Positions 40,313-64,000 of a stretch of 64,000 nucleotides of DNA are shown piece after piece. Position numbers and translations under genes: made by a program. The notes under the pieces are model-generated. The model did no database searches, was not told the DNA's origin, and worked only from the letters and a program-made list of their open reading frames with translations. The stretch is taken from contig CAYYSX010000002.1 of NCBI GenBank assembly GCA_964474315.1, positions 8,938-72,937 of the forward strand, in the 5' to 3' direction. Origin of the DNA: an uncultured Verrucomicrobiota bacterium. GTDB taxonomy: Bacteria > Verrucomicrobiota > Verrucomicrobiia > Limisphaerales > UBA9464. Numbering within the stretch: the stretch's first letter is position 1; each line of letters begins with the position of its first letter.

Positions 40313-40350
40313 AGGCGGTAGGGAGAAACGTTCGCTCGGTCGCTTGAAGG

Positions 40351-41871: not shown

Positions 41872-41874
41872 GGA

Positions 41875-43755: not shown

Positions 43756-43901
43756 AGTTTTCCAATTGCCGAGCGCGTGGCAGTCAACGGTGCAGTGATC
43801 CAAAGTATGCCTTTCGTTCACTTTCGCAAACATTCGTTCTCCCGTCTCGGTTAGCGTTTACGGTCTTGGTGTTTTCAACCGGTCGGTTGATGATGCGGGC
43901 C

Positions 43902-46706
43902 TCATTTTGGCCGGAATCCGGCCCGCGCGTCGGGAACGGTGTTGGGATCGTAGGGCATGGCGTTCGGGTCGTTCACCCGGCGGCCAGAAGGATCAAGGAT
44001 GGTTGGAGTCACGAAGATCAGGAGGTTCTTCTTCACCGTGGCAGACGATTCACTGGTAAACAGGCGGCCGATCAGCGGGAGATCGCCGATAATGGGAACC
44101 TTGTCCCGCTGCTTACGGGAATCTTCGGCGATCAAGCCGCCCAAGACTACAGTTTGGCCATCCCACACGATGGCGGAAGTCACCACCTGCCGAGTTCGCA
44201 AACGCGGAAGGGGCAATGTGGCCGTCAGAGGAATGCCAATGGTGTTGCCGGCGACCGACTGCGCCTGAGGCACAAAGGCTCCCGGATCATCATATCCCAC
44301 AAATTCCGTCACCACCGGAATCAGGGTCATTTGGATGGAGACGTCGTCGGCAGAGACATAGGGGATGACATTGAGTTCCGGGCCAAAAGGGACCGTTTGT
44401 ACGGTGTAATTCAGGGTAGGGGCGACACCGCCGCCACCCGTGCCAAAGCCACCCCCGAATCCACCGTCAGTGGCGCCACCGCTGGCGGTTTGCTGAAGAT
44501 CCACACCGGTAACAATGGTACGGACATCGGCCGTTACAATCTGGGCTTGCCGGCCGCTGAGCGTGGTGACCTTGGGAGCCGCCAAGACGTCCACCCCATC
44601 CCGCTGTTCCAGGGCCGAAATGGCGACACGGAACTGTGGATTGGTGAGAATCCCGGTGATCGTGGCGAGCGTTGGGATCGCGGTCTGATTGCGGTTCGCA
44701 TCCGTATAACTGGAGCGGAGGCCAGCCGTCACATTACCGTCAGTGGCAGCAGGCGGGATCGTCGTATCGAAGAAGTTATCCGGCACACCCGGGACCCCGA
44801 TCGAAGCAGGAACGCCGGGAAAAGTGCCATATGGGTTGGCCGAAGATCCTGAAGTTCCTGGACTTCCCATGGAAGGGGCAGTGCCTCCTTGAGCCCCCAC
44901 CCGTCCGTTGCCAATAACCCAGTTCCCAAACCACCACTGGAAGCCCAACGCTTTGGCATCGGACTGAGTGACTTCGGCAAACTTGGCCTCAATCTCCACC
45001 TGGGGCGGAGCAACATTAAGGGCCGCAATGGCCTGTTCGATCACATCCAGATCGGACAGGGTTGCGCGGACGAACAGGATTCCGGTTCGGTCGTTGAAGA
45101 AGAGGGCCTTTTGATTGGCGTTTGGATCAGCCAGTCCGTCGAGACCAAGCGTTGGTTGGGTGAACCCGGCGCCTTGCTGACCGGGCAAGGCCGTGGCCGG
45201 AAAATCAACTCCGCAGGCTCTGAAGAAGTCTCGGACCACCAGCTGAACATTGGCCATCAAGTTCGTACGCGTTACTGCGGTGATGCCTACGCCTTGTTGT
45301 CCACCGCCACCGCCACCGCCACCACCGCCACCGCCCTGCGCCACTCCCGAGGAGGCTTCGACCCGAGGGACAGTAAAGATGCCCTGCTGGCCGCCGGCAC
45401 CACCGCCACCACCGCCACCGCCACCGCCGCCGCCGCCGCTTCCCACCTGCAAGTCGCCGAAGGGGAATCCGACGACCGCTTCAAGACCTTGCAAGAAGGT
45501 ATTCGGATCCACACGGAAAGAGCGGGTATGCAACTGGGGATTTTCGGGCAACCGCTGGGTGAATACGATCGCGTAGTCCTCAATGGAGATTTTGAGCGGA
45601 CGCTCCGCCACCTTGGCGATGGCATCGATGGCATCGGCCAGACGGACATCCCGCAAGCCGGGTACCAGACGGATGATGATACTGTTGAGGTCAACCGGCT
45701 CGGCCGGCGCCGCCGGAATCGGCGCACCCGTGTTCGGGTCAATCTGCGGAACCGCGGACGGGGGGATGACATCCATGGTGGAGTTGATGATGAAGTTGAG
45801 CCCGCGTCTCTCTGGATCACGCGCGCGGGCTTGCTCATCCAGGTATTTCACCACTTCGCTCAGCGGTACGCCGTCAAACTTGACCTCATTCAGGACGATC
45901 CGGTCGAGCTTGTTCTGAATCAGTTGGCGGCCCGCCCCGGTGTAAATGAGATTGGTGCGGGCGAAGGGATTGGCGTTGGGCAGGTTGTTGCGCTTGGGAG
46001 CCCAGGCCTGCTCCACCTCAAGAAGCATTTCGCGGGTGGTCAGTTTCTTGAGCTGAGCCGCACGACCAAATCGAGCCTGTTGGATCAGTTCCAAGTAGTA
46101 GTTGGCGGTTCGATTGTCCGGTTGCAACTCCTTGGCTTGCAGGAGGAGCTTTTCAGCCTCTTCCAAGCGACCCGCTTCATAAAGCAGCTTGCCGTCGTTG
46201 GCGAGAGTCGATGCTTGGAGGTCTTGTTGCTTGAGGGCGGGAATCTGGGAAAGAGCCTCTTCGGAAGGCAGCTTGCCAACCAGGCTGGAGAGGCGCCGGT
46301 CATTCTCGGCCTTAAAGCTCTGGGCCACCGTATTGGAGGGATCTACCTTGAGGGCGCGACTGACCTGGACATTTGCTTCGCGGTAATCGCCGCGGCGGGA
46401 GGCCGCCACGGCCAAATCAACGCGGGTCGTGGAGAGGCCGGTGCGCACTTCGGCCCGCTCCGCTTCCGCGGCGGCGCCCAACTGCTCCGTAAGGGTCCAG
46501 GCATCTTCATAAAGTTTGGCCGCGGCCGGCAGATCCTTGGCCGCCGTGGCGATTTGCGCGGCCTCAATAGTCTTGCGCAACAGGATGAGTTTTTCCTGTC
46601 GGCGGACCGACTCTTCTTCGGCGACCTGGTTCGCCGACTGGGACAACAGCGGCTGGGCTGCGGCGAAGAGCAGCAACAGGCTGAGGAGACGAGACAGTTT
46701 CAACAT
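43902..46706 (-). CDS. type II/III-secretion-family secretin (PilQ/GspD-like) with N-terminal TPR region and two poly-Gly linkers
   Basis: 934 aa. Signal peptide, TPR-like repeats (LLYEAGRLEEAEKLLLQAKELQPDN) and two Gly runs. C-terminal secretin domain: VLAAPKVTTLSGRQAQI...VVLGGLIAEDSRKQRDKVPIIGDLPLIGRLF...LLIFVTPTIL. Confidence 0.9.
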   Translation of the reverse strand: MLKLSRLLSLLLLFAAAQPLLSQSANQVAEEESVRRQEKLILLRKTIEAAQIATAAKDLPAAAKLYEDAWTLTEQLGAAAEAERAEVRTGLSTTRVDLAVAASRRGDYREANVQVSRALKVDPSNTVAQSFKAENDRRLSSLVGKLPSEEALSQIPALKQQDLQASTLANDGKLLYEAGRLEEAEKLLLQAKELQPDNRTANYYLELIQQARFGRAAQLKKLTTREMLLEVEQAWAPKRNNLPNANPFARTNLIYTGAGRQLIQNKLDRIVLNEVKFDGVPLSEVVKYLDEQARARDPERRGLNFIINSTMDVIPPSAVPQIDPNTGAPIPAAPAEPVDLNSIIIRLVPGLRDVRLADAIDAIAKVAERPLKISIEDYAIVFTQRLPENPQLHTRSFRVDPNTFLQGLEAVVGFPFGDLQVGSGGGGGGGGGGGGGAGGQQGIFTVPRVEASSGVAQGGGGGGGGGGGGQQGVGITAVTRTNLMANVQLVVRDFFRACGVDFPATALPGQQGAGFTQPTLGLDGLADPNANQKALFFNDRTGILFVRATLSDLDVIEQAIAALNVAPPQVEIEAKFAEVTQSDAKALGFQWWFGNWVIGNGRVGAQGGTAPSMGSPGTSGSSANPYGTFPGVPASIGVPGVPDNFFDTTIPPAATDGNVTAGLRSSYTDANRNQTAIPTLATITGILTNPQFRVAISALEQRDGVDVLAAPKVTTLSGRQAQIVTADVRTIVTGVDLQQTASGGATDGGFGGGFGTGGGGVAPTLNYTVQTVPFGPELNVIPYVSADDVSIQMTLIPVVTEFVGYDDPGAFVPQAQSVAGNTIGIPLTATLPLPRLRTRQVVTSAIVWDGQTVVLGGLIAEDSRKQRDKVPIIGDLPLIGRLFTSESSATVKKNLLIFVTPTILDPSGRRVNDPNAMPYDPNTVPDARAGFRPK
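45301..45335 (-). repeat. coding GGN-codon run (poly-Gly, 12 residues) inside the secretin gene
   Basis: The + strand reads CCACCGCCACCGCCACCGCCACCACCGCCACCGCC, which encodes GGGGGGGGGGGG in the secretin frame. Confidence 0.9.
45391..45440 (-). repeat. coding GGN-codon run (GSGGGGGGGGGGGGGAGG) inside the secretin gene
   Basis: The + strand reads GCCGCCGGCACCACCGCCACCACCGCCACCGCCACCGCCGCCGCCGCCGCT. This is the second poly-Gly linker, about 20 residues N-terminal of the first. Confidence 0.9.
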
Positions 46707-46752
46707 GGTACTTGCGGTTGGAAAAATCCGTAAAACAGGGTGGGAGGGACGC

Positions 46753-47532
46753 TCAATCGGAGGACAGCTTGATGATCGTGCGGGTGCCGTTGGGTGCGGA
46801 AATTACAAGTTCCTCTTTGCCAATGGCAACAATCTTGTAGGTCGTGCCGGCCAGCACGAGGGTGTCATCAGCGCGCTTTCCCGGAAAGTCGCGGTTTTCG
46901 AAGCGGAGGTCGGCCTGGTATCCCATCACCTTCTCGAAGGGCTTCCCTTTGGCCAAGGTCACCTGCTCGCCGCCCGCCAGTTCGATCACCACCTCACCGG
47001 CCGAATCCTTGGGACCGCGCACTTCTCGCAGAAGGAAAAAATTGTTCTTGGTCCCTTCGGTCAGCGACAGCGTGACAGGGCGTCGTTCGCTTGGTCTCTT
47101 AGCGTGTTGCTGTTCGATGGCGAATTGGTAGCGATACGGATCACCGATTCCGGTCGGACCGACATAGGTGACGCTCAGGTTGAGTGGGCGGATCGCCACC
47201 ACTTTGAGTGTCGCGGCGAGGTTTCGACCCGGATCCGGCTTCAGTTCGCTTGGATTAGCACCGCGAATCCAACGGACCGGATTGAACACGTTGTGGTCGC
47301 CCGACAAATTGAGATTCACCGGCTGGGACATCCTCTGAACGGCAGCGACGGAATTGGTGAGGTCCACCGGCGGCAGCGGTTTCCGACTACCACGCACCCT
47401 CGTTTGGAGCTGCTCGTCCAGCGAGGATTGGACCGCACTGACCGTCTGGGTCAGCCAAAAGGCAGCGGCGGCGACGACCAGGAGGACTACGCTGAGAATG
47501 AGCTTTTCGTAGTGCTTCTTCAGAAAATCCAT
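46753..47532 (-). CDS. bitopic membrane-anchored hypothetical protein (positional equivalent of Amuc_1099 in the Akkermansia pilus-like cluster)
   Basis: 259 aa. Single N-terminal TM helix (LILSVVLLVVAAAAFWL). Sits between the Amuc_1100-like gene and the secretin. The equivalence is by position only. Confidence 0.55.
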   Translation of the reverse strand: MDFLKKHYEKLILSVVLLVVAAAAFWLTQTVSAVQSSLDEQLQTRVRGSRKPLPPVDLTNSVAAVQRMSQPVNLNLSGDHNVFNPVRWIRGANPSELKPDPGRNLAATLKVVAIRPLNLSVTYVGPTGIGDPYRYQFAIEQQHAKRPSERRPVTLSLTEGTKNNFFLLREVRGPKDSAGEVVIELAGGEQVTLAKGKPFEKVMGYQADLRFENRDFPGKRADDTLVLAGTTYKIVAIGKEELVISAPNGTRTIIKLSSD

Positions 47533-47565
47533 GACGACCAGGAAGAGGGGGTGGCGGGTACGGTA

Positions 47566-48582
47566 CTAGTTCACCGCGTTGGGGCGCCCCGGATTCTCGG
47601 CCTTGTCACGGGGAAGGAGTTTGACCAATTCGATACCAAGAGTGACGCGGAGCGGCTTCTCGTCGAGAACCACTTCTCCGGGACGGTTGGCAGTCGGTAG
47701 CGCTACCTGTGGAACCGCGGGCTGCCCTTGATACCGTCCTGGGGTGAGTCCATAACGCCGAGCCAAAGTCGGATCTCTGGCATAGGGGCTGGCCCCTGGC
47801 ATCGCCATCGGCATGGCGGCGGTTGACGTCGCGGGCGTGTCGAGATTTCCGCGCTCGACATTGAGTGTTTTGACGATGAACGACTCCGGCGCCTCTACTA
47901 AGCCCATCAAGACAGCGGCGAGTTCCTGACTGAAGACTTGAACCACCACCTCATAGGGGTAGCTCACCGAGTTCATCGCCGAGTTGGTGGTAATCTTGCG
48001 GGTCAAAAAGGCACCCGTTCCGGCCGATTCATTGGTCCCCACCGGCGCACGCTTGAAGGAAACGATGGACGGAACTTTGGCGTCAAACAGAATGCGGCAC
48101 AGACTCTGGATGTCGGCCAATTGCGCCGAAAGAGATGGCAACGAACTGACGGAGAGCTGAAGCTGTTTGCGTTGTTCGTCGAAGGTAAATCCGTAGGTAG
48201 GACTGGAGCCTTTATCCGGAAGCTGCACCCCGGCCCGTTCCGCTTCTCGAGTCAATTCTGTGATCGTGGCTTCGAGATGTGATTTGAATCCGGCGGTATC
48301 GAGCCCTTCAGGAGGGGTTCGTTCCGTAAAATGATTGCGGGCCTCCTTGATGAAACGTTGCACCCGCGCTTCCTCCTCCTTAGCCAACTGTATGTTGGCA
48401 GTGTCGGGGTACACCGGACGCTGAACCAGGCTGTCTAACTGGCTGTTCTTGGCCTGCAATTCCGCGTCCACGCCATCCGCCTCGCTCTTGGTACCCAACA
48501 AGTACCAGACCCCGGCGCCCATCAGGACCACAGCGACGGCAAGCGCAATGACAAAGCCGAGGTTTTTCTTGACCCAGTCCAT
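47566..48582 (-). CDS. Amuc_1100-family pilus-like protein (bitopic, coiled-coil N-region)
   Basis: 338 aa. N-terminal TM helix (LGFVIALAVAVVLMGAGVWYLL), a coiled-coil segment and a C-terminal ...PLRVTLGIELVKL. The architecture and neighbours (PilM-like upstream, secretin downstream) match my recollection of Amuc_1100. Not aligned. Confidence 0.6.
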   Translation of the reverse strand: MDWVKKNLGFVIALAVAVVLMGAGVWYLLGTKSEADGVDAELQAKNSQLDSLVQRPVYPDTANIQLAKEEEARVQRFIKEARNHFTERTPPEGLDTAGFKSHLEATITELTREAERAGVQLPDKGSSPTYGFTFDEQRKQLQLSVSSLPSLSAQLADIQSLCRILFDAKVPSIVSFKRAPVGTNESAGTGAFLTRKITTNSAMNSVSYPYEVVVQVFSQELAAVLMGLVEAPESFIVKTLNVERGNLDTPATSTAAMPMAMPGASPYARDPTLARRYGLTPGRYQGQPAVPQVALPTANRPGEVVLDEKPLRVTLGIELVKLLPRDKAENPGRPNAVN

Positions 48583-48583
48583 A

Positions 48584-50455
48584 TCAGAGCTTGATGGGGC
48601 GTTTCAGTTTCACCTTGAGCGGGAAGGAGAAGGAGGGAGAGTCAGAAGAAACTTGCTCCAGATTTCCCGACAGCAGGGTTTCCTTACCATCGAAGATCTC
48701 GGAACCCTGCATCGCCTTCTCCACCGCGTAGGCAATTTCACTGTTGGCTTTGGGATTCAGATTGACGGAACGGATGGTGAGGTTGATCACCGCGACCTCG
48801 TTGGTGTTGGCCGGACCCTTGGACTCCGGTTTGGCCGGTTCCGCGCCTTCGCCGCCTTCACCCTCGCCCATCGGTCTCATCGGCATCAGGCCATAGCGTC
48901 GAGCCAGGACCGGATCCATCCGATAGAATCCCCCTGGCCCCGAGGACTCCTCGACCGCATCCGCCACGGCCAAATCCTTGGATGGCTCGGTGGACAGGAG
49001 GGTATCGATCCAGATTCCAACGGGTACGCCCAGTCGCGATCGTGATTCAGCCTCCGTCCCTTCGAGTACGGCTCGGAGTTCTCCCAGGATCTGCACCCAA
49101 GTCAGACGGTCTTCGACCCAGGTACCGAACTGCGTGGCTTCCTCCGTGACCTGTCTCAGGCGCCCCTCGGCGGACTCCAACTGAGCCTTGGTTGCCTCCA
49201 GCGGCTGAAGCTGTTGGTCAATTTTGGCCAACCCATCGCGTCGCACTTCGGCGACCCGCGAAAAGAACCAGCCGACCGCAAAGACTCCCAAGACCGCGGC
49301 GTAAGCGGCGGCGATCAAGAAGGGTTTCTTGGCATTGAACTGCTGACGGGCCAAGGAAGCACGCGGCATCAGGTTCAGCTCCACCGGGCATTGGGCCACG
49401 TTGCGAAGGCCAAGACCGATGACCTCGCCAAACTGTGGAGCGAGGCCTTCCAACCGGGACACATCGACCGACGGGTCGATTTCGACGTTGCGAAACGGAT
49501 TGAAGAATTCGACCGGGAGGTTGAGCTTTTCCTCAAAAAACTGCGCCGCATAAGGCATCAGCGAGCCGCCCCCGCACAGGAAGACGCGGACTGGCGTTGC
49601 CCCCCCTTGCTGGGTGCGGTAAAATTGAATGGTCTGATTGACCTGGAGATGGAGGCGGGTCAGGACATTCCGGGCGACTTTGGACACGGCGGCAATCCGC
49701 GGATTGTCCGGCTCCTCGTAGGCCCCACCGAGACTGACGAAACCGTCGCTGACCTTGAATCTCTCGGCCTCATCGAACCGCATCTTGCCCTCAGCGGCGA
49801 ATTCTTGAGTGATGGCGTTGGCCCCGACATTGACGCTGCGGGCGTAGTACTTGGTAGGCTCGAACAGGAGGACGTTGCTGGTCTTCGCCCCGATGTCGAT
49901 CAACAGGCTGCAGCCTTCCTGATCCCCGTAGTTGTAGCGGAAGGCATTCGCCAGAGCCCCAATGGAGGCATCCACCACCTGCATCCTCAGGCCGGCTGCT
50001 TCGCCGGCGCCGAAGATCTGCTTCTCCACGACCTCGGACTTGATGGCAACCAACAGGACCTCGAGTTCCCCATTCGCACTGGTGCCGAGGATTTGGTAAT
50101 CCCAAGCGGTTTCGGCAAGGGGGAACGGTACATTCTGTTGTGCCTCGTACTGAATGATTTGCGTAACTTTCGAGGTATCAACCGGGGGTAGCTTGACGAA
50201 CTTGGAGAAAACCTGGAACCCCGGGGCGCATAGGTTGACATCCTTCGAGGTGAACCCGCCTTCGGCGAGCAACTCGGCCAGGGCCTTCTTCACCGCACCC
50301 TCGCGAGCCGCATCCTGTGACCCGGCGAGACCGAGCGGTTTCAGGCCAAAACGCAACAGGCGCAGACCGCTGTTCTCGGCCGGCGCCAGCTCCGCGATCT
50401 TCAGGGTCCCTGCCCCGAAGTCCACCGCCAGAAAAGTTTTCGACGTTTTGAGCAT
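48584..50455 (-). CDS. type IV pilus assembly protein PilM fused to a PilN-like TM/coiled-coil module and a C-terminal extension
   Basis: ATG 50455 (MLKTSKTFLAVDFGAGTLKIAELA). Actin-like ATPase fold motifs (LLIDIGAKTSN, VFLCGGGSLMPY). Then a TM helix KKPFLIAAAYAAVLGVFAVGWFF and a coiled coil. The maximal ORF starts at 50527. Confidence 0.8.
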   Translation of the reverse strand: MLKTSKTFLAVDFGAGTLKIAELAPAENSGLRLLRFGLKPLGLAGSQDAAREGAVKKALAELLAEGGFTSKDVNLCAPGFQVFSKFVKLPPVDTSKVTQIIQYEAQQNVPFPLAETAWDYQILGTSANGELEVLLVAIKSEVVEKQIFGAGEAAGLRMQVVDASIGALANAFRYNYGDQEGCSLLIDIGAKTSNVLLFEPTKYYARSVNVGANAITQEFAAEGKMRFDEAERFKVSDGFVSLGGAYEEPDNPRIAAVSKVARNVLTRLHLQVNQTIQFYRTQQGGATPVRVFLCGGGSLMPYAAQFFEEKLNLPVEFFNPFRNVEIDPSVDVSRLEGLAPQFGEVIGLGLRNVAQCPVELNLMPRASLARQQFNAKKPFLIAAAYAAVLGVFAVGWFFSRVAEVRRDGLAKIDQQLQPLEATKAQLESAEGRLRQVTEEATQFGTWVEDRLTWVQILGELRAVLEGTEAESRSRLGVPVGIWIDTLLSTEPSKDLAVADAVEESSGPGGFYRMDPVLARRYGLMPMRPMGEGEGGEGAEPAKPESKGPANTNEVAVINLTIRSVNLNPKANSEIAYAVEKAMQGSEIFDGKETLLSGNLEQVSSDSPSFSFPLKVKLKRPIKL

Positions 50456-50778
50456 GGTGACGTGTGTTGGAGTGCCAACCTGCCAAAAAAATTGCCCGCA
50501 TGCGAAAGCTCGCAGGCGAGCGATCATGGCTAAGGCGAAGGGCTACGTAAGAAATGCGAAGAAGCCGGTCAAACACAAAAACCCCTTCACGGCAGAAAAA
50601 TTTACAGGTGTTTACGTTCTCCGGTCCTGCTCGCGTTGCTTTTCGCTCCGACACCACCGCCAAAACCGTCTGGCTGGCCAAGGATCGGGGCCACCTGTCG
50701 CCAACCAGTCCAAAGTGGCTTTCAAACCGCAAGATCACCAAGCCCGGCGCAGGTTCACCGCCGCCTCACCCGATGTCA

Positions 50779-55226: not shown

Positions 55227-55293
55227 GCCGCCCCATTGATCTCCTGCTTTAGCTTGTCTTTCATGGCTGTTGTCCGTCAGTGTCACGCCCCGG

Positions 55294-56517
55294 ATGCGAA
55301 TCTTACATCGGCTCTGCTGGCTAGTCGGGGCGCTACTCGCAGTTGGAACGCTGCTCGGACAGATCGATCCGGACAAACGCAAGTTGGTCCAAGCCGGCTA
55401 TACCCAGCCGCTCCAAGGCCAGTCTCCGGTACAGGCGTACGCCTATTTTTATTGGAACGAACCGTACTTCCCGTGGACCAATACGACCTTACGGACGGCG
55501 GTAGCCCCGACTTACGTTGACGCGGAACTGGGATTTCGCGATCTCCTTCGCCGAGGAACATCGGTTGGCCTTGGAGTTTCCGGGGGCGCCTTTGCTGATA
55601 ATTACGCGGAGATCAACGAGAGCACCTTTCTCAAGGAGGAGTCGTTCTTCGGCATGTCGGGGGGAATCAATGCGTCCTTGTACCACACCTTCAATCCAAC
55701 GGAAGAGGGCAAACGGCCCAGTTCGATCGCTGAGGTGCCGCTGCAGCTCATCCTGCGCAATACGTTTCGCGGGGTTTTCTATAGCGACCAAAACAACACG
55801 AGCCCGGACTTCGAGCTACCCGACAACCAGCCGACCTATAATTTGCGGACTGGCTTGCGCTGGGGCGGACGAGAACCGCTGCTTTCGCCGACGGCGGCAT
55901 TTGAAGCCTCCGTTTGGTACGACCTCGAACAACGAGGTGATCCGGGGGCCTATGGGTTCGATGGAGACCGAAACCTCGAGCGGACCACTCAACGGTACTG
56001 GGCCCGTCTCCTGTTCTATTGGACCTTTACTAATCAGATGCAGCTTCAGGTGAACTTGACGGGCGGCAGCAGCACGGATGCCGACCGCCTCTCCGCGTAT
56101 CGGCTGGGCGGCAGTCTGCCCGTGGCAGCGGAATTTCCCCTCATGATTCCGGGCTACTTCAACCAGGAAATCAGCGCGAAGCACTTCGCGCTGCTGCATG
56201 GGATGTTTCTCTATCCGCTCACGTCGGACGGCCGTTGGAAGGTCGGAGTCGTCGGGTCCTCGGCGAACGTTAGCTATTTACCCGGATTCAGTTTGGGCCA
56301 ACCGTGGAACAGCGGCGTCGGGGGAGGGGTCAAGTACACGTCGCCGTCGGGCGCCTGGCAGTTCGTCCTCAGCTACGGCCACGGGTTCAACGCGATCCGC
56401 AGCGGAGAGCGTGGGGCGGATAGCGTCACCCTCGCCATCCAGTATGACTTCCTGGAAGACCGCGGCCGCTTTTTTCAAAGACTCCTGCCTGCGCACTGGC
56501 GCGGTTCCTCATTCTAA
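55294..56517 (+). CDS. putative outer-membrane beta-barrel protein
   Basis: 407 aa from ATG 55294 (MRILHRLCWLVGALLAVGTLLGQ signal). Alternating-polarity strands rich in Y/G/N. C-terminal residue is Phe (...WRGSSF). No named family recognised. Confidence 0.45.
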   Translation: MRILHRLCWLVGALLAVGTLLGQIDPDKRKLVQAGYTQPLQGQSPVQAYAYFYWNEPYFPWTNTTLRTAVAPTYVDAELGFRDLLRRGTSVGLGVSGGAFADNYAEINESTFLKEESFFGMSGGINASLYHTFNPTEEGKRPSSIAEVPLQLILRNTFRGVFYSDQNNTSPDFELPDNQPTYNLRTGLRWGGREPLLSPTAAFEASVWYDLEQRGDPGAYGFDGDRNLERTTQRYWARLLFYWTFTNQMQLQVNLTGGSSTDADRLSAYRLGGSLPVAAEFPLMIPGYFNQEISAKHFALLHGMFLYPLTSDGRWKVGVVGSSANVSYLPGFSLGQPWNSGVGGGVKYTSPSGAWQFVLSYGHGFNAIRSGERGADSVTLAIQYDFLEDRGRFFQRLLPAHWRGSSF

Positions 56518-56580: not shown

Positions 56581-58500
56581 GTGAAAGCATTCCTCGCCGC
56601 CGTGTCCCTCGCCGCTTCCTTTTCCGTCGTCGCCGAGGTTCCTGACAACCTGGTGGTGGAGGGAGTTCCTTCGATTCCCCCCGCCCTGAAGGAACAAGTC
56701 CGGCCGTATCTGGAGTTTCGTACCGCGGCGTTCCAGTCCTGGCATCCGACCCGGCGCGAGATGCTGATCACCACGCGCTTTGCGGAAACGCCCCAGCTTC
56801 ATCTGGTTGCGCAGCCGCTGGGCGCTCGGCGGCAGTTGACGTTTTTCAGCGAACCGGTGGCGGGAGGGAGTTTTCGTCCGCGCTCAGGCGACTATCTGGT
56901 ATTTGCCCAGGATACCGGCGGCGGGGAGTTCTATCAGTTGTATCGGTTCGATCCGATGGACGCTCGCGTAACGCTCCTCACCGACGGCCAATCGCGGAAC
57001 ATGGGAGCTGCTTGGGCGAAGTCGGGAGACTTCCTCGCCTACACCAGCACCCGGAGAAATGGAAAGGACAACGACATTTATGTCATCAATCCCGCCCAAC
57101 CGGAATCGAACCGGATGGTGGCGGAGGTCAGCGGCGGGGGTTGGTCCGTGGCCGACTGGTCGCCGGATGAGTCCACGCTGCTGGTAAGCCAGTATGTCTC
57201 GATCAATGAAAGTCATCTGTTCCTGCTGGAAGTGAAGTCGGGCCGAATGACGCCACTCACTCCTCCGGAGGCCAAGGGAGTGGCCTGGGCCGACCCGTGT
57301 TTCAGCAAGGATGGGAAGCAGGTGTTCGCCACCACGGACCAGGACGCTGAGTTCCGCCGCCTCGTCCGGCTTGATCCTGCCACCGGGGCGGTGACGGTGC
57401 TGACTCCAGACCTCAAGTGGGGCGTGGAATCGATCGAGTTGTCGCCGGATGGAAGCACCATGGCCTTCATTGCGAACGAAGATGGCGCCAGCGTGCTGCA
57501 TTTGCTCGACCTGGCGACCGGCCACGACCGGCCCGCTCCGAAGCTTCCGCTCGGGGTGCTTGGCGGGTTGGAATGGCATCCGGACGGCAAGGAACTGGGC
57601 TTCTCGTTCTCATCCGCCAACTCCCCGGCGGATGCGTGGTCGGTGGAAGTAGCCAGCGGCAAGCTAACCCGCTGGACGGAAAGTGAAACGGGCGGTCTGG
57701 ATGCCAGCCGGTTCCGGCAGCCGACCTTGATCCGGACGCAGTCATTCGACGGCCTAGTCATTAGCGGGTTTCTCTTTCAGCCGGATCCCGCGCGGTTTCC
57801 TGGGAAGCGTCCGGTGATCATTAACATTCATGGTGGACCGGAAGCACAGACCCGCCCTGGTTTTCTCGGCCGGAACAACTTCCTCCTGGATCAGCTCGGC
57901 ATCGCGCTGTTGTACCCGAACGTCCGCGGGTCGAGCGGCTATGGGAAGACGTTTCTGACGTTGGACAACGGGAGGAAACGCGAAGATTCGGTGAAGGACA
58001 TCGGAACGTTCATCGATTGGGTTGGCCGCCAACCGGACCTGGACGCGGGACGTATCGCGGTGATGGGGGGAAGTTATGGCGGTTACATGACGCTGGCGTC
58101 GCTGACCCACTTCGGCGACCGATTGAAGGCCGGGGTGGACGTGGTGGGTATCTCGAGTTTTGTCACGTTTCTGGAGAACACGCAGGATTACCGACGCGAC
58201 CTGCGCCGGGTGGAGTACGGCGACGAACGCGACCCGGAGATGCGACGATTTCTCGATTCGATTTCGCCGCTGAATAACGTGGCGAAGATCCGTTCCCCGC
58301 TGTTGGTGGTGCAGGGGTTGAACGACCCACGGGTTCCTGCGACGGAAGCCGAGCAGATGGTCAAGGCGTTACGGGGGCAGGGTGGCACGAGCTGGTATTT
58401 GATGGCCCGCGACGAAGGGCATGGATTCGCCAAAAAGAAGAACGCGGACTTTCAGTTTCTCAGCACCATCCTTTTCCTACAGGATTTTCTGCTGGAGTAA
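56581..58500 (+). CDS. S9-family serine peptidase (prolyl oligopeptidase/dipeptidyl aminopeptidase type) with N-terminal TolB-like propeller
   Basis: 639 aa. Signal peptide. Nucleophile elbow VMGGSYGGYMT, then later LLVVQGLNDPRV and ARDEGHGF (Asp/His of the triad). Confidence 0.9.
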   Translation: MKAFLAAVSLAASFSVVAEVPDNLVVEGVPSIPPALKEQVRPYLEFRTAAFQSWHPTRREMLITTRFAETPQLHLVAQPLGARRQLTFFSEPVAGGSFRPRSGDYLVFAQDTGGGEFYQLYRFDPMDARVTLLTDGQSRNMGAAWAKSGDFLAYTSTRRNGKDNDIYVINPAQPESNRMVAEVSGGGWSVADWSPDESTLLVSQYVSINESHLFLLEVKSGRMTPLTPPEAKGVAWADPCFSKDGKQVFATTDQDAEFRRLVRLDPATGAVTVLTPDLKWGVESIELSPDGSTMAFIANEDGASVLHLLDLATGHDRPAPKLPLGVLGGLEWHPDGKELGFSFSSANSPADAWSVEVASGKLTRWTESETGGLDASRFRQPTLIRTQSFDGLVISGFLFQPDPARFPGKRPVIINIHGGPEAQTRPGFLGRNNFLLDQLGIALLYPNVRGSSGYGKTFLTLDNGRKREDSVKDIGTFIDWVGRQPDLDAGRIAVMGGSYGGYMTLASLTHFGDRLKAGVDVVGISSFVTFLENTQDYRRDLRRVEYGDERDPEMRRFLDSISPLNNVAKIRSPLLVVQGLNDPRVPATEAEQMVKALRGQGGTSWYLMARDEGHGFAKKKNADFQFLSTILFLQDFLLE

Positions 58501-58508
58501 TCGGTGCT

Positions 58509-59402
58509 CTACAAGTAGCGGGCGAAGTTCGTTACAAACCAGGTGATCAGGAGCGCCACCCCGAGAGCCCCGAGAGCCGCCGCGCCGAGGGCCGCCCATC
58601 CGCTCAGCGGGAGTCGTAGCGGTGACGAGGTACGGCCCGCTTCCTTTTTGGAGTACAGGTGGCGGGCGATTCCTAACGTCACCAACGTCATCGTCAGCAG
58701 CAAGGGCGCGGTGATACGACCGCTAAGCCGTTCCCAAAAATAGTCTTCCAGCAGCAGGCCAGCACGCAACCCAGTGAGCGAACCCAAGGCACCCCAGACC
58801 CAGGCCGTGTAGGCAACTGCCCGGGTGGTGGCGAGCGCGGCGACCGTGAATCCAATCGCCAAAGCCGCCAACGGTGCGATCAGAACCACCGCATACAACA
58901 TTTCCGGATGCCGTAGTTCCACCATGGCAATGCCGGCGGACACAAAGAAGCTCAAGATCAGGTCCGCCAGATGGTGATACAGCACAAATACGTTCATGAG
59001 GGTGAACAGCAGGAGGACCCCGAAGGCGAAAAGCAGGCGTGCGTCGAATCGCTGCCGTCGCGTGGCCGGCTGAGAAAAGGAAAACTCCTCGCACCCACCC
59101 ATCACATCGCTTCCCCCGAAGGCCGGCCCACCGATGATCGCCACGAACCCACTCAAGGCCAGAATCCACAATGGATGGGCCACTCGAGGCAGCAGCCACA
59201 CCGCAGCGAGCCACAGCACGAAAAAGCCAAGAATCAGCCGCGAATGGGAAAACCACTCGCCCCACAGCAGACCACGCCAGAATCGACGGCGTGAACCGGT
59301 CCGGATCCCCGCCGGGACCGGTGCTGCCGGACGGTCCACCAGCCGCGGCGAGGTCTCCGAGGTCACCGACGTGTTCATGGATGCAGCGTCCGAGAACCGC
59401 AT
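58509..59402 (-). CDS. polytopic membrane protein, unknown function
   Basis: 297 aa from ATG 59402; the maximal ORF from 59531 would overlap the upstream gene by 70 nt. About 6-7 hydrophobic helices. No motif recognised. Confidence 0.5.
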   Translation of the reverse strand: MRFSDAASMNTSVTSETSPRLVDRPAAPVPAGIRTGSRRRFWRGLLWGEWFSHSRLILGFFVLWLAAVWLLPRVAHPLWILALSGFVAIIGGPAFGGSDVMGGCEEFSFSQPATRRQRFDARLLFAFGVLLLFTLMNVFVLYHHLADLILSFFVSAGIAMVELRHPEMLYAVVLIAPLAALAIGFTVAALATTRAVAYTAWVWGALGSLTGLRAGLLLEDYFWERLSGRITAPLLLTMTLVTLGIARHLYSKKEAGRTSSPLRLPLSGWAALGAAALGALGVALLITWFVTNFARYL

Positions 59403-59460: not shown

Positions 59461-60207
59461 CTAGCGCAACGGCACCCCTTGGGTGTCGGTGTAGAATTCC
59501 CACGGATAGTCGGAGCCAGGAGGCTCGGCACCTGTGACTCCAGGTCGAAACACCCTCCGGCTGGTCACGGTCCCGTCCCGCTGCGCACGCAGGACCAATC
59601 CCTCGTACCGGAGGAAATCCTTGAAGTTCGGGGCGGTCGCCGAAGTGGGAACACGTACGCCATGGAGTTGGCAAATCGCCATGCCGGTTTCCGACCCCAT
59701 GGCGGCCAGCCGTTGCCACGCCTGCCGACGCCAGGACAGCGGATGCAAATACGAGAACGGCTCCGTTTCATTCACTTCCAGTAGTTCGAGCGTCCACGAT
59801 CCCGACTCCGGGTCGCGCAGGTCGTTCTGTCCCATCCAGGGTTCCTGCGACGCATTGGCGATGTTTCCCCAAAACAGGTTGGTGATCATACCCCGCCGGA
59901 GAGCCGGATCCGACGGGCAGATGAATCGGTTGGTGGCGCGGCCCTCGTGGGTATGCTGGATCACCCGGGAGAGTGACCGGGGACGTTTCTCCGTGTCGGA
60001 AGTGTACAGCTCAATGGCCCGAACGACCTGACGGAGATTCTCTCGACAGGTGACTTGCTGCGATCGGACGCGAGCGTGCGCAACCGCGGAGCTCGCGAGC
60101 GTGGCGAGTGTAGCGACAACTGCCAGCAGGCTCAGCAGTTCCACCACGGTGAAACCGCCCGTCCGGGCCGACCCCTCCGCCCGTTGAAGGATCCCACGTC
60201 GCGTCAT
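59461..60207 (-). CDS. prepilin-type N-terminal cleavage/methylation-domain protein (pseudopilin-like, degenerate H-X9-DG type)
   Basis: 248 aa from an ATG that overlaps the upstream stop (ATGA at 60204-60207). Class-III signal ...ARTG|GFTVVELLSLLAVVATLATLA with Glu at +5. C-terminal LRAQRDGTVTSRRVF resembles the DG(S/H)V motif of PVC pseudopilin-like proteins. Confidence 0.75.
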   Translation of the reverse strand: MTRRGILQRAEGSARTGGFTVVELLSLLAVVATLATLASSAVAHARVRSQQVTCRENLRQVVRAIELYTSDTEKRPRSLSRVIQHTHEGRATNRFICPSDPALRRGMITNLFWGNIANASQEPWMGQNDLRDPESGSWTLELLEVNETEPFSYLHPLSWRRQAWQRLAAMGSETGMAICQLHGVRVPTSATAPNFKDFLRYEGLVLRAQRDGTVTSRRVFRPGVTGAEPPGSDYPWEFYTDTQGVPLR

Positions 60208-63200
60208 GGTGTTGGAGGAATATGCCATACCCCGCCCAGATTCCGCGGGATCCACAGGCCGGAACTCAAGTCCGCGGCCGCAGCCCCTCCCGGAATCCAA
60301 AGCCCACACGGACGTTCCGCCACCGCAACCCCCTCCAGCACGGCGGGCCGAGTCGGATCCAGAAACCGCAGCCAGGATGATCCGTCGGAGGCCACGATGA
60401 CCTCGCCGAAGCCCGTCAACTCCGACACCGGCTGAGGGGTTTCCCGTCGGCCCAGGGCGACAAAGCTGCCGTCGGCCCCGACCCTCCAGGTTTCCAGGGT
60501 CCCCGATTGTCCGGTTGCGGCCGGCGCCCTACCCAACCAGACGACACCATCATCCCGAACCAAGGTAGGCTGCGGCCAAGTCCCAGGTAGTTCCAACGTT
60601 GTGACCAAACTGGCCTGAACCCCGTCGTAAGCCAGGGCCTGGATCTGTCTCTGGGAACCCTCCGAATCTACCTGGCTAACCTGCGTGTACAGCATCTCTC
60701 CCTCATGCGCGAGGCCGAGCAAGTCGCCCGGCAGACTGGCCGGTTCCCACACCACCGGCTCGGCCGGATCCGAATAATCCACCACATCCAATGTCCACGA
60801 GGACCGGGCTTCTTCCACCACTCCGGAAGCATCCTTCGGATCCTTGATTGGATCCGCGTTCACGGGGACCATCTGCACACGGTTCCGGCTGGTAAAGACC
60901 TTGCCGGCGGCGGCGAATGAGTCGGAAAACGTATCCCAAGTTCCCTCCCTGTTCTCGGTGCCCAGGACCCGAGCGGAGGTGAGAACCGGGGCGCCAGGAT
61001 CGGTCACGAGATATCCAAGAAAGTGTCGGATCGTCCCACCCCACCACCAGGGACTACCCCACCCCAAAGCCGGACGTCCCGGCGCAATATCGACGCTCGC
61101 CCAGGGCCACGGGTAAAATCCGTACCCGTCGTGCCCCGCCTCGGTCCACACCAGCACTCCCTCCCTCGGCCAGAGTGCCTTCCATTCACCGGCGTACTGC
61201 TGTTCCAAATTAGGTGCTTGGGTTTGCCCAAGGAGTGTCAGGGACTCGGCGCCCACCTCCAACACACTCAACCAAGTCTCCCCGCGGATAAGCTCGGAAA
61301 TCCATTCCTTGGTGACCACTTCTTGGCCGGAATCGCTCCGGTTGGTCTCCCCAACCTCGCGGCTCCGCCATTGGTCCGGCTGTAATTGAAGGAGGTAAAG
61401 CCGGGCGTTGCGCAGCGTGGCTCCGACGATGGGCGGACCGTCCAAAACCAGTCGCGCCAGCGGAGTTTCCGGATCGATCTTGGCCACCAGAGTAACCTCT
61501 GGTTGCAAAGTCCCGCCCTGGCGAACCTGGAGAAGGCGGGAGCCATCGAGAATGACCCGGTCCACTTCCGGAGCCAGCTCCAGCACCGACTCCACCACCG
61601 GATGGTCGCGCTGGGTCGCGTTGACGCTCAACAACTCTCGAGCCGACAACGAGAGAATCCGGTCACCGATCAGTGTAGCTCGACGCGCCTGCAAATCGTG
61701 TTCAATGACCCCGCGCAAAGTGAGTTGGTCTCGTTCCAAGTCCACCAACTGCACTCCGTTGAACCACTGCGGTTCCATCCTTGAAGCCCGCTGTCCGCTC
61801 CACGGCACCAACACCAGACCGGCGTCTGGAAAAACACGGAAGGCTTTTTCATCCCAGTTGGCCTCGCTGGCGGACCAGCCTTCGCCCAAGAACACCTTGT
61901 TCAGGAGCGTTGGATGGTCCGGATCCCCCACGTCGAACAGCGAAACCGCTGCCCGAGATCCCTCCACCCCCATGGCCAGCAGGCGATCTCCCAGTGGATG
62001 CAGATATTGCGAAAACCCAGGCACCTCGAGTTCGCCACGAACCCGGGGGCGAGCCGGATCGCTCAGGTCCACAATCCACAGCGGATCCACTTGCCGAAAG
62101 GTAATCACATACGCCCGATCTCCATCGAAGCGGGTTCCAAAGACGCTTTCATTGGTAACCAGGGTAAGGCCGGCCAGGCGGTTGGGGGCGCTGGGGTTCG
62201 CCAAGGAGAACGTTTCCAGCACGGCAGAAGGAGGCGTCCATTGCCACACCGGCCGTGTTCCGTTGCCTCCGGGTTCGGGCGTTTCTATCCATTGTCCCGT
62301 GCTGTCCGTCTGCGAAACCACAGTTAACACCTCCTGTCTGAGGCCCAGCTTGAACTTGTCAGCCACCCGCCCGGCGGTCAGCAACCAGCCTTTCGGACGA
62401 GTGACACCCCGGGGATCGCTGATATCAAACACGTGGACGGCGTGATTGCCCTGCAACGCCCAGGCCGCGATCCGCGCCAACGGATCAGGAGGAGTCGTAC
62501 CGGTCGTGGCAACGAACAGAAGTCGTTCCGTGGCTGCAATGGCATCGGGAGAGGCGGCGAGTTCGACCGGCTCCCGAACCACCGGAGCGGAAGGATTGGC
62601 CAAATCGAATGCGCTGACGACCGTCCGGCTTTGCCAGGGAAAATATTCGTAGCTAATGACCGTTCCTTGTTCGTCACGCCGCTCCAGCGGAGCCGGTTGC
62701 CACCACTCATAGGAAGCCACGTAGAGGGCGTCGCCAACCAGACGGCTCTCGCGAATCTGGCCGGGAATATTCAGTCGGCTCCGCAGCACCGGCTGGCCAT
62801 TGTCCACCTGAACCAGGATCAGTTCGCTTCCTGATGTGCAGGCTTGTTGGGTCAACAAGGCCACCCAGGCTGTTCCTTCTTCACCAGGCGCCGGCAGCAG
62901 CCGGTACATTTGTTCCCCCCAGGACAGGAGCGGCAGCGTGCCTCTCAGTCGGGGAGCTTCGGGCTGGCTCACGTCAATGACCTGAAGACCGCGCTGTTGG
63001 TTGAAAAAGTACCAGGTATCACCATCGAGGTACCAGATGTCAGACTCGACCACGGCGCGTTGTCCGCCGGTTTCCGTGGCGCTGTCTGCCGGCCCTGGAC
63101 CCAAGCCAAAGACCCCGTCGAAAGTACGGTAACTCCCGCTCACCGACGAGGTGGGCACGGCGCCAAACTCTTTCAGGCCGGAAAAGAAAGAAGCCGGCAG

Positions 63201-63587
63201 AGCCAGTTCCGACAACGCTTCATCCCGCACTCGAAGCATCTCCGTCCCGTCCCCCAGCGGCACGATGAACACGACTTCGGTGTCATTCCCCTCGCTCCAA
63301 CGGACCTCGCGCGGTTTCCAAGCGCCTTCGCGGAGCCGAGGACGTGTTTCCAGGGTAAGCCGTCGCGGTCCCGGAGCCAGACGCACGGTGATCCACAGAT
63401 CTCTTCCCACGGCGCGCACGTCGGTCACCGTCGTGGCTCTCTCCTGAGCAAAGATCTCCGGAAATCCTGGTCCTGCCAGAGCTGCAAACAGGACGATCAT
63501 CATCCCAAGCGAGATCGTTCCCGTCCTGGACCCCGGTGGCTTCCTGGCGCCGGACGGCGGTGTTCCTCTGTAGAGCTTGGCATGCAT
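60204..63587 (-). CDS. 1127-aa exported beta-propeller-domain protein (COG4880/Beta_propel-like)
   Basis: N-terminal hydrophobic anchor/signal (ISLGMMIVLFAALAGPGFPEIFA). Repeated blade-end motifs: VIDVSQPEAPRL, FDLANPSAPVV, VFDISDPRGV, FSLANPSAPN, SLFDVGDPDHPTL. Hallmark block DRAYVITFRQVDPLWIVDLSDPARPRVRGELEVPGFSQYLHPLGDRLLAMG. Confidence 0.75.
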   Translation of the reverse strand: MHAKLYRGTPPSGARKPPGSRTGTISLGMMIVLFAALAGPGFPEIFAQERATTVTDVRAVGRDLWITVRLAPGPRRLTLETRPRLREGAWKPREVRWSEGNDTEVVFIVPLGDGTEMLRVRDEALSELALPASFFSGLKEFGAVPTSSVSGSYRTFDGVFGLGPGPADSATETGGQRAVVESDIWYLDGDTWYFFNQQRGLQVIDVSQPEAPRLRGTLPLLSWGEQMYRLLPAPGEEGTAWVALLTQQACTSGSELILVQVDNGQPVLRSRLNIPGQIRESRLVGDALYVASYEWWQPAPLERRDEQGTVISYEYFPWQSRTVVSAFDLANPSAPVVREPVELAASPDAIAATERLLFVATTGTTPPDPLARIAAWALQGNHAVHVFDISDPRGVTRPKGWLLTAGRVADKFKLGLRQEVLTVVSQTDSTGQWIETPEPGGNGTRPVWQWTPPSAVLETFSLANPSAPNRLAGLTLVTNESVFGTRFDGDRAYVITFRQVDPLWIVDLSDPARPRVRGELEVPGFSQYLHPLGDRLLAMGVEGSRAAVSLFDVGDPDHPTLLNKVFLGEGWSASEANWDEKAFRVFPDAGLVLVPWSGQRASRMEPQWFNGVQLVDLERDQLTLRGVIEHDLQARRATLIGDRILSLSARELLSVNATQRDHPVVESVLELAPEVDRVILDGSRLLQVRQGGTLQPEVTLVAKIDPETPLARLVLDGPPIVGATLRNARLYLLQLQPDQWRSREVGETNRSDSGQEVVTKEWISELIRGETWLSVLEVGAESLTLLGQTQAPNLEQQYAGEWKALWPREGVLVWTEAGHDGYGFYPWPWASVDIAPGRPALGWGSPWWWGGTIRHFLGYLVTDPGAPVLTSARVLGTENREGTWDTFSDSFAAAGKVFTSRNRVQMVPVNADPIKDPKDASGVVEEARSSWTLDVVDYSDPAEPVVWEPASLPGDLLGLAHEGEMLYTQVSQVDSEGSQRQIQALAYDGVQASLVTTLELPGTWPQPTLVRDDGVVWLGRAPAATGQSGTLETWRVGADGSFVALGRRETPQPVSELTGFGEVIVASDGSSWLRFLDPTRPAVLEGVAVAERPCGLWIPGGAAAADLSSGLWIPRNLGGVWHIPPTP

Positions 63588-63835
63588 GACGGACGGTCTA
63601 GCAGATTCCCGTGCAAAAGTCTGCCTCAGCGATAAAGCCCATAAACCTCACGACGACAATGGTCCAACCAAACCGTCGAAAGGCTCAGATAGCTTGCCAG
63701 CCTGCGACCGTGATCGCAATCTGATGCCGAGTTGAGCCAGCCCGGGAAACCTCAAACATCGCCTTCCCGCCCTCGCGGGGGCGACGGCAGCTACGAAGTC
63801 GTTGCCCACACATTGATGACTTCGCGGCCACTGGT

Positions 63836-64000
63836 TTACCCGGGCTGGCCTGATTCTTCGTCGCTCTTTTGGCTCCGCGACGTCTCGTGGAACCAATCCA
63901 CAAAGATCTCCTCCAGCGTTAAAGGAAACACATAGACCCGCGCGCCCGGCAAGGCCTGGATCCCAGCGAGTTGGGCGTCGTCGGTCACACGAGCCAGAGC
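63836..64000 (-). CDS. C-terminal 54 codons of a probable ABC-transporter ATP-binding protein (gene continues beyond the right edge)
   Basis: Own minus-strand translation: ALARVTDDAQLAGIQALPGARVYVFPLTLEEIFVDWFHETSRSQKSDEESGQPG*. The ...LTLEEIFV... ending is typical of ABC-2-type ATPases. Short fragment, so tentative. Confidence 0.45.
   Translation of the reverse strand, partial: ALARVTDDAQLAGIQALPGARVYVFPLTLEEIFVDWFHETSRSQKSDEESGQPG

Follow-up and report, generated by a model that had tools for sequence, protein, structure and literature searches.

The window analysed here is a stretch of 64,000 nucleotides (contig C2:8938-72937) from the genome of an uncultured Verrucomicrobiota bacterium, and towards one end it carries, all on one strand (minus), the genes of an ATP-binding cassette (ABC) ATPase, a giant beta-propeller protein (60204-63587), a prepilin-type or pilin-like protein (59461-60207) and a polytopic membrane protein (58509-59402). 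Only the 3' end of the ATPase gene falls within the window (63836-64000, with a TAA stop at 63838-63836); the whole gene, which extends beyond the window edge (C2:72773-73705, corresponding to window positions 63836-64768), encodes 310 amino acids (aa). Nine nucleotides (nt) upstream of it, outside the window and again on the minus strand, lies the gene of a 150-aa GntR regulator of the YtrA type (C2:73715-74167). A non-coding gap of 248 nt (63588-63835, minus) separates the ATPase gene from the propeller gene, the propeller and pilin-like genes overlap by four nucleotides (60204-60207, minus), and a spacing of 58 nt leads from the pilin-like gene to the membrane-protein gene, which starts with an ATG at 59402 and encodes 297 aa with about seven helices.

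Across related genomes the conserved order is gntR (YtrA type), ABC ATPase, in some genomes an extracytoplasmic function (ECF) sigma factor and an anti-sigma factor, then Beta_propel, prepilin-like gene and ABC-2-like permease, so that the locus, judged from its sequence, appears to be an ABC-2 operon with unusual periplasmic partners. An initial annotation of this DNA had proposed that the propeller and the pilin-like protein could be a non-homologous analogue of PilY1 and the minor pilins of type IV pili. We argue below that the pair is more likely an outward-facing attachment of a small ABC-type pump than the tip of a pilus, since it lies inside an ABC operon and never beside pilus genes.

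The propeller and the pilin-like protein

The propeller gene encodes an exported protein of 1127 aa whose N-terminus fits a Sec-type signal (aa 1-47), with a single hydrophobic stretch at residues 24-42 followed by IFA|QE. Residues 178-655 (nt 61623-63056, minus strand) match the Pfam family PF09826 Beta_propel (COG4880) with an E-value of 1.5e-53 and 182.8 bits against a cut-off of 22.4, covering profile positions 10-490 of 495; the match was reconfirmed on the genome, and a Pfam LVIVD repeat falls inside the same region. The block RAYVITFRQVDPLWIVDLSDPARPRVRGELEVPGFSQYLHPLG is present in the protein, as are six blade-end motifs of the form xDxSxPxxP (residues 204, 327, 460, 506, 551 and 936), and the earlier reading of the protein as a COG4880-type propeller, made from this block and these motifs, is borne out by the family match. 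We know of no function established for the COG4880 propeller family. The protein has no match in NCBIfam or in the PDB sequence library, and its C-terminal 470 aa lie outside any family match and end in a conserved GLWxPR..G.W..P tail.

In the fuller form GLW(I/L)PR..(Y)G(L/V)W.(I/V)P, this tail is common to all propeller orthologues and paralogues (60204-60260 in the window; loci L033-L041; the paralogue on contig C138). It immediately precedes the overlap with the pilin-like gene and may be a docking strand; it is also kept in propeller copies that have no pilin gene.

In the DNA the junction of the two genes reads ...CCA ACA CCATGACG..., the propeller TGA (60206-60204) overlapping the pilin-like ATG (60207-60205) just as had been annotated. 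Another in-frame ATG is found at 60228, and we favour the start at 60207 because ATGA or GTGA at the junction is the geometry conserved in relatives. Read from there, the pilin-like protein has 248 aa and a basic leader of 18 aa, and its N-terminus, MTRRGILQRAEGSARTGG|FTVVELL..., combines Gly-1, Phe+1 and Glu+5 with one hydrophobic helix at residues 19-37. Leader and mature start together (MTRRGILQRAEGSARTGG|FTVVELLSLLAVVATLATLA) have all the properties of the class-III signal that had been recognised initially, and E23 is nearly invariant across the family. Cleavage by a prepilin peptidase is plausible, since the genome encodes such an enzyme (A24) elsewhere, along with at least ten ATPases of the T2SSE family (GspE/PilB/PilT type).

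Family searches with the window's own copy were less telling. It matches neither PF07963 N_methyl at E<=1 nor PF07596 DUF1559, and its N-terminal NCBIfam matches to PilA, GspG, GspJ and ComGC are weak and far below the cut-offs. Among 40 orthologues, PF07963 is found in 31 (best E-value 4.5e-7) and PF07596, weakly, in 20 (best 2.3e-5). The family forms a tight group of 95 clusters, some of them labelled prepilin-type or PulG-like by their sources, and its alignment shows three invariant cysteines (C54, C97 and C179) together with the motifs WGN, FSYLHPL.W, CQLHG and RAQRDG.V and a DYPWEFY tail. A structure model (mean predicted local distance difference test score, pLDDT, 82) has a 52-residue alpha-1 helix (residues 21-72) and a small alpha/beta head with three strands; a fold search of this model against the PDB gave no match at E<=0.001, the best having an E-value of 1.9.

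Conservation of the gene order

Among 40 relatives, most genomes of the family encode a full-length orthologue of the pilin-like protein (31-72% identity), and the orthologue recurs in a few other families of the order. In relatives from the same genus the propeller is mostly absent from the locus and the ATPase gene lies directly 5' of the pilin-like gene, which gave the impression that the adjacency of propeller and pilin-like gene is not conserved. This impression was reversed by a wider sample, obtained by a scan with the pilin alignment and comprising 64 loci (972 kb), all from Verrucomicrobiota metagenome-assembled genomes, several of which are labelled Limisphaerales or Pedosphaera. Upstream neighbours were counted at 62 informative species-level loci and downstream neighbours at 59.

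The propeller gene lies directly 5' of the pilin-like gene at 41 of the 62 loci, the ABC ATPase gene, with the propeller absent, at 13, and another gene at 8. At those 13 loci the order is ATPase-pilin-permease, the pilin-like gene standing between ATPase and permease, and on the 3' side the membrane-protein gene follows at 51 of 59 loci; it is thus with the transporter, and with the permease gene in particular, that the pilin-like gene is most constantly associated. Upstream of the 41 pilin-linked propellers we find the ATPase at 18 loci (ATPase-propeller-pilin-membrane, with no sigma genes), an ECF sigma/anti-sigma pair at six, and both at two (L055 and L061), where six genes stand in a row; four loci have something else in this place, and at 11 the upstream sequence is too short. 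The GntR gene directly precedes the ATPase gene at 33 of 34 loci.

The start/stop overlap of propeller and pilin-like gene, as ATGA or GTGA, is present at 31 of 40 measured junctions, and the leaders that result are 14-33 aa long. Adjacency and translational coupling persist down to about 40% protein identity, which supports the view that both proteins are synthesised jointly and act as partners. The initial annotation had allowed that the adjacency might fail in relatives; the 41 pairs and 31 overlaps show that it does not. In a FastTree phylogeny of 53 propeller proteins the pilin-linked copies are spread across a clade of 40 rows, with stand-alone copies nested within it, and the window's propeller sits on a long branch at the base of a sigma-linked subclade.

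The place of the 248-nt gap is taken in relatives by a 4-nt overlap (L079) or by the ECF sigma/anti-sigma pair. A gap of this kind (63588-63835) is unusual for the cluster and may be a scar or hold a promoter; a consensus scan of it gave neither a promoter-like nor a terminator-like site, and across the operon such sites are no more numerous than in shuffled sequence.

The ATPase, its regulator and the membrane protein

An orthologue of the ATPase matches PF00005 ABC_tran. The best NCBIfam matches of the ATPase are PmtA (3.4e-43), DrrA (3.2e-42), NodI and GldA, that to PmtA scoring 148 bits against an equivalog cut-off of 350, a resemblance rather than membership in Pmt; in the PDB the best matches are the nucleotide-binding domains of ABCA7 and ABCA1 (1e-50), Rv1218c and NosF. 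These matches place the ATPase in the DrrA/PmtA/ABCA/NosF class. ATPases of the DrrA/PmtA/NosF class pair with ABC-2 permeases. The regulator encoded before it, a short GntR protein of the YtrA type, matches PF00392 with an E-value of 4.5e-17.

The membrane protein (58509-59402) is harder to classify. When 26 orthologues were compared with Pfam, only scattered sub-threshold matches appeared, and none of the 44 close clusters of the family has Pfam domains. A profile search of 1.8 billion representatives yielded 232 relatives, of which 19 (two long fusions, the rest mostly distant) were scanned with Pfam. In six of these (P0288, P0281, P0273, P0217, P0272 and P0279) an ABC-2 family is the best or only match, the distant members matching PF13346 and PF12679. 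P0288, from a contig of only 1.3 kb, is the one that exceeds the cut-off (PF13346, E 3e-6, 27.4 bits against 25), the other five matches being weaker.

An AlphaFold model of the membrane protein, built on the 26 orthologues (pLDDT 79.5), has about seven helices. Its Foldseek matches in the PDB are weak, and those with the highest probability are ABC-2 membrane domains, namely NosY, PmtCD, CcmB and ABCG25/ABCA/ABCH; PmtCD reaches a probability of 0.93-0.94 with TM-scores of 0.40-0.50, and NosY has the lowest E-value (0.18-0.35). By E-value, the ten best matches also include ESX-3 core chains, GlpF and other membrane proteins. The Pfam matches of the distant relatives and the fold matches converge, and on this moderate evidence we read the protein as a putative divergent ABC-2 permease.

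The genomic arrangement of separated genes bears on its partner. In five genomes the ATPase gene lies apart from the pilin/membrane pair, each of them having exactly one ATPase orthologue (70-79% identity), with a GntR gene, and the one separated ATPase locus that was inspected (L110) has no permease alongside. In a complete Limisphaerales chromosome the operon is without the membrane gene, whose single copy stands alone 177 kb away. The pairing of ATPase and membrane protein is supported by these separated ATPase orthologues and by the relocated membrane gene, which agree, and that the membrane protein serves as permease of the operon's ATPase is a moderately supported proposal.

Three members of the membrane-protein family (P0155, P0180 and P0193) are 739-890 aa long and have, after an ABC-2-like domain, more helices and an extracytoplasmic segment of about 250 aa. 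We considered whether this segment is a pilin-like head in the fusions P0180 and P0193 and rejected the idea for these two, as hhalign against the pilin alignment gave a probability below 1%. Proteins with CotH-kinase and lamin-tail domains adjoin the pilin/membrane pair in two genomes (L030 6827-9094; L031 4683-7082), at loci where propeller and ATPase are absent, and in the complete chromosome one of this kind is convergent to the relocated membrane gene (L113 1-1428). These neighbours may be coincidence or a further partner.

Sigma factors, pili and chance

One alternative would place the propeller in an ECF-sigma envelope-signalling unit, where it would either partner an RskA-like anti-sigma factor as a sensor or be what the regulon chiefly produces, with the pilin-like protein as a mere membrane anchor and the GntR/ABC pair as a separate stress exporter of the YtrA/Pmt style that tends to lie nearby. 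The eight pilin-linked loci in which the sigma/anti-sigma pair directly precedes the propeller speak for it, and so does the presence of the same pair 5' of stand-alone paralogues. One of these is in the genome studied here (C138:96-6140), where the paralogue, an open frame of 1360 aa with 54% identity across its 750 N-terminal residues, comes after the genes of an ECF sigma factor and of an anti-sigma factor of 449 aa and adjoins no pilin-like, ATPase or permease gene. The sigma factor of the pair is of the ordinary ECF type, the anti-sigma factor of L056 resembles RskA_C at 4e-6, just under the cut-off, and the basal position of the window's propeller in the sigma-linked subclade fits as well. 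This explanation has to contend, however, with the 18 loci that run ATPase-propeller-pilin-membrane with no sigma genes, with the 13 that lack the propeller and still have the pilin-like gene flanked by ATPase and permease, and with the window's own operon, which has no sigma/anti-sigma pair. We consider it unlikely, if deserving of attention.

Beside the stand-alone propellers another kind of adjacency is seen. At one sigma/anti-sigma/propeller locus of another genome (L124, G023:C128) an ordinary DUF1559-type prepilin gene (3047-3880, minus) follows about 120 nt after the propeller, in what looks like an independent propeller-pilin adjacency, and at L117 and L118 a DUF1559-type gene lies divergent, near a stand-alone propeller.

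The explanation given by the initial annotation is that the propeller is a PilY1-like tip adhesin, loaded through the coupled minor-pilin-like protein onto a pilus or pseudopilus. The machinery that assembles this filament, of the type IV pilus or type II secretion kind, would have its genes elsewhere, possibly in the secretin operon of the window, which has no pilin gene. Much about the pilin-like protein agrees with this: the class-III signal with Gly-1, Phe+1 and Glu+5, the N_methyl matches in 31 of 40 family members, the pilin-like alpha-1 helix of the model, the conserved coupling to a large propeller, and the prepilin peptidase and many GspE/PilB-type ATPases of the genome. The propeller itself does not resemble PilY1, PF05567 being absent among its matches at E<=0.1 and no vWA domain being found, and a set of minor pilins is missing, the operon having a single pilin-like gene. 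Nor do the neighbourhoods look like those of pilus genes. Throughout the 64 loci (972 kb) we found no homologue of the four GspE/PilB/PilT-type ATPases or of the A24 prepilin peptidase of this genome, and none of the window's secretin or PilM. ATPase and permease flank the pilin-like gene even where the propeller is missing. Further prepilin-motif open reading frames (ORFs) in the vicinity of the cluster come to about 14 in 529 kb, a density just above that of the genome as a whole; each stands by itself and not in a set of minor pilins, often beyond the membrane gene and convergent to it.

The PilM-secretin operon (37130-50527) does lie 8.9 kb from the propeller/pilin pair, close to the distance of about 9 kb given initially. 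Between the two are HAD, RecG and DnaJ-domain (HscB-type) genes, a 415-aa ORF and an S9 peptidase gene, so that housekeeping genes on both strands separate them. The suggestion that the pair supplies this operon with its missing pilin-like component was rejected, because related loci show no secretin-operon homologues nearby apart from one weak partial match (L050). On all these points the analogy to PilY1 and minor pilins fails to find support, and a pilus-tip function appears more doubtful still than the signalling one.

At no fewer than eight loci (L055, L059, L060, L083, L084, L088, L090 and L102 among them) a typical DUF1559-type prepilin gene (FTLIELLVVIA...) is convergent to the end of the cluster, on the opposite strand after the membrane gene.

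Lastly, that two unrelated genes have come together by chance was a fair worry in a genome with about 112 prepilin-motif ORFs (in 6.75 Mb, about 2% of genes) and a second Beta_propel gene that has no pilin neighbour, and it is by now so improbable that we set it aside, because orthologous pairs (41/62 loci, across families of the order) and the 4-nt overlap (31/40) are conserved, pilin linkage running throughout the 40-row clade of the propeller tree.

A proposed function for the operon

We favour, as somewhat better than an even bet, the reading of the operon as an ABC-2 transporter module in which a bitopic pilin-like subunit holds a giant propeller and ATP hydrolysis acts on the periplasmic parts; the gene content and its conservation, the coupling, the class of the ATPase and the lack of pilus genes nearby are shown by the sequences, and the permease role, the four-protein complex and the mode of action are what we infer here. 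The ATPase and the membrane protein would form an ABC-2 transporter (type II exporter, type V fold) in the inner membrane, under the control of the YtrA-type repressor. The pilin-like protein would probably be processed by the prepilin peptidase of the genome and would serve as a bitopic accessory subunit, its long N-terminal helix lying in the membrane beside the permease and its head facing the periplasm. The Sec-exported propeller would be held by this head, the 4-nt overlap ensuring that both are made in fixed proportion. ATP hydrolysis by NosFY moves NosD, and in a similar manner hydrolysis by the present ATPase could move the periplasmic parts; otherwise it may hand a hydrophobic, membrane-derived cargo to them. 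A narrower version of this proposal, which we put forward only tentatively and would sooner bet against than for, is that the prepilin-type (DUF1559-like) protein is a fixed, membrane-anchored subunit of the ABC-2 transporter, not of a filament, tethering the COG4880 propeller so that ATP hydrolysis acts on a propeller in the periplasm or at the cell surface.

Several observations weigh against the transporter module. Neither Pfam nor NCBIfam yields a match for the membrane protein of the window itself. In the fold search every match has an E-value above 0.1 and a TM-score of 0.3-0.5, and ABC-2 permeases lack the seventh helix that is present here. The loci all come from one order, so that the counts are not independent and overstate the independence of the evidence. 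The propeller is not obligatory, since four relatives with the pilin/membrane pair have no propeller at E<=1e-10 and propeller paralogues, in the present genome (C138) as in relatives, lack an adjoining pilin, ATPase or permease gene. Finally, the genome has a prepilin peptidase and at least ten GspE/PilB/PilT-type ATPases elsewhere, and the pilin-like protein may yet be assembled into a filament.

Should the narrower version, with the prepilin-type protein as a fixed transporter subunit, nevertheless prove right, it would give a first functional context to the COG4880 family and to part of the expansion of pseudopilin-like genes in Verrucomicrobiota and Planctomycetota. In the literature on COG4880/PF09826 propellers, DUF1559 proteins and combinations of pseudopilins with ABC-2 transporters we found no account of such a cluster. 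Bacteria of the Planctomycetota-Verrucomicrobiota-Chlamydiota (PVC) group carry about one hundred pilin-like genes per genome, for which we know of no role. For one family of these genes the position in the genome is fixed: it lies between ATPase and permease of a small ABC transporter, and it is usually coupled translationally to a COG4880 propeller. This calls for caution in that not every pair of pilin and propeller is a pilus tip; as the organisms are uncultured, the value of the proposal is that of a hypothesis and not of a result.

Flanking genes

Beyond the membrane gene (stop at 58509), a gene for an S9 prolyl-oligopeptidase (56581-58500, plus strand) converges with it, with 8 nt between the stops and no terminator-like site at the convergence (58500-58509). 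The 415-aa ORF (55270-56517) matches no family; in the closest relative (L023) it is syntenic with the S9 peptidase gene.

Comparison with known systems

The likeness to PilY1 and the minor pilins FimU-PilVWXE is one of outline, a large exported beta-propeller protein being encoded beside a protein with a prepilin signal. The present system differs in having no PilY1/PilC domain match, one pilin-like gene and not four or five, ABC transporter neighbours, and no pilus assembly genes in the 64 neighbourhoods. The pilin-like protein by itself comes closer to the DUF1559/H-X9-DG prepilin-like proteins of Planctomycetota and Verrucomicrobiota (PF07596, TIGR04294), with which it shares the class-III signal, a QxxC..NL(R/K)Q..A...Y segment, a C-terminal ..DG.V and the typical size of about 250 aa. 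It differs from them in a spacing of about 28 residues between His and DG (9 in H-X9-DG), in that the window copy matches neither PF07963 nor PF07596, and in that its family forms a separate group marked by the three invariant cysteines and the DYPWEFY tail.

For the way in which the parts could fit together there are models elsewhere, with no sequence relationship to the genes described here. In LptB2FG-LptC a bitopic partner places its single helix between the helices of the transporter, a precedent for a single-helix accessory subunit of an ABC system. Control of ABC-2 operons by YtrA-type GntR regulators or by ECF sigma factors has precedents in ytrABCDEF and sigY-yxlCDEFG of Bacillus subtilis, and PmtR of staphylococci is likewise a GntR-type protein.

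The nearest structural analogy is probably NosDFY(L), the system of nitrous-oxide reductase maturation (7O0Y, 7O17, 7ZNQ), whose genes specify, besides an ABC-2 ATPase and permease, a large all-beta protein of the periplasm that docks onto the permease. Among the fold matches of the membrane protein NosY has the lowest E-value, and the matches of the ATPase include NosF. NosD, however, is a beta-helix where the present protein is a PF09826 propeller, NosDFY has no pilin-like subunit, and the similarity is weak (E 0.18-0.35). With no nos genes in the window, the analogy is one of architecture and not of membership.

As an operon, the cluster seems most nearly comparable to Pmt of Staphylococcus aureus (pmtR-pmtABCD; PmtCD 6XJH, 9Q2N; PMC7527219), which likewise combines a regulator with a small ABC-2 permease and an ATPase that is of the DrrA class and extended at its C-terminus. 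In NCBIfam the ATPase of the present operon matches PmtA best, and among the fold matches of the membrane protein those to PmtCD have the highest probability; PmtR is described as a soluble transcription regulator only (PMC7527219). The scores obtained here are far below the equivalog cut-offs, and Pmt itself consists of two ATPase/permease pairs with no periplasmic partners, exporting small amphipathic peptides from a Gram-positive cell, whereas the operon described here belongs to a diderm and has the genes of a giant propeller and a pilin-like protein placed between those of the ATPase and the permease.

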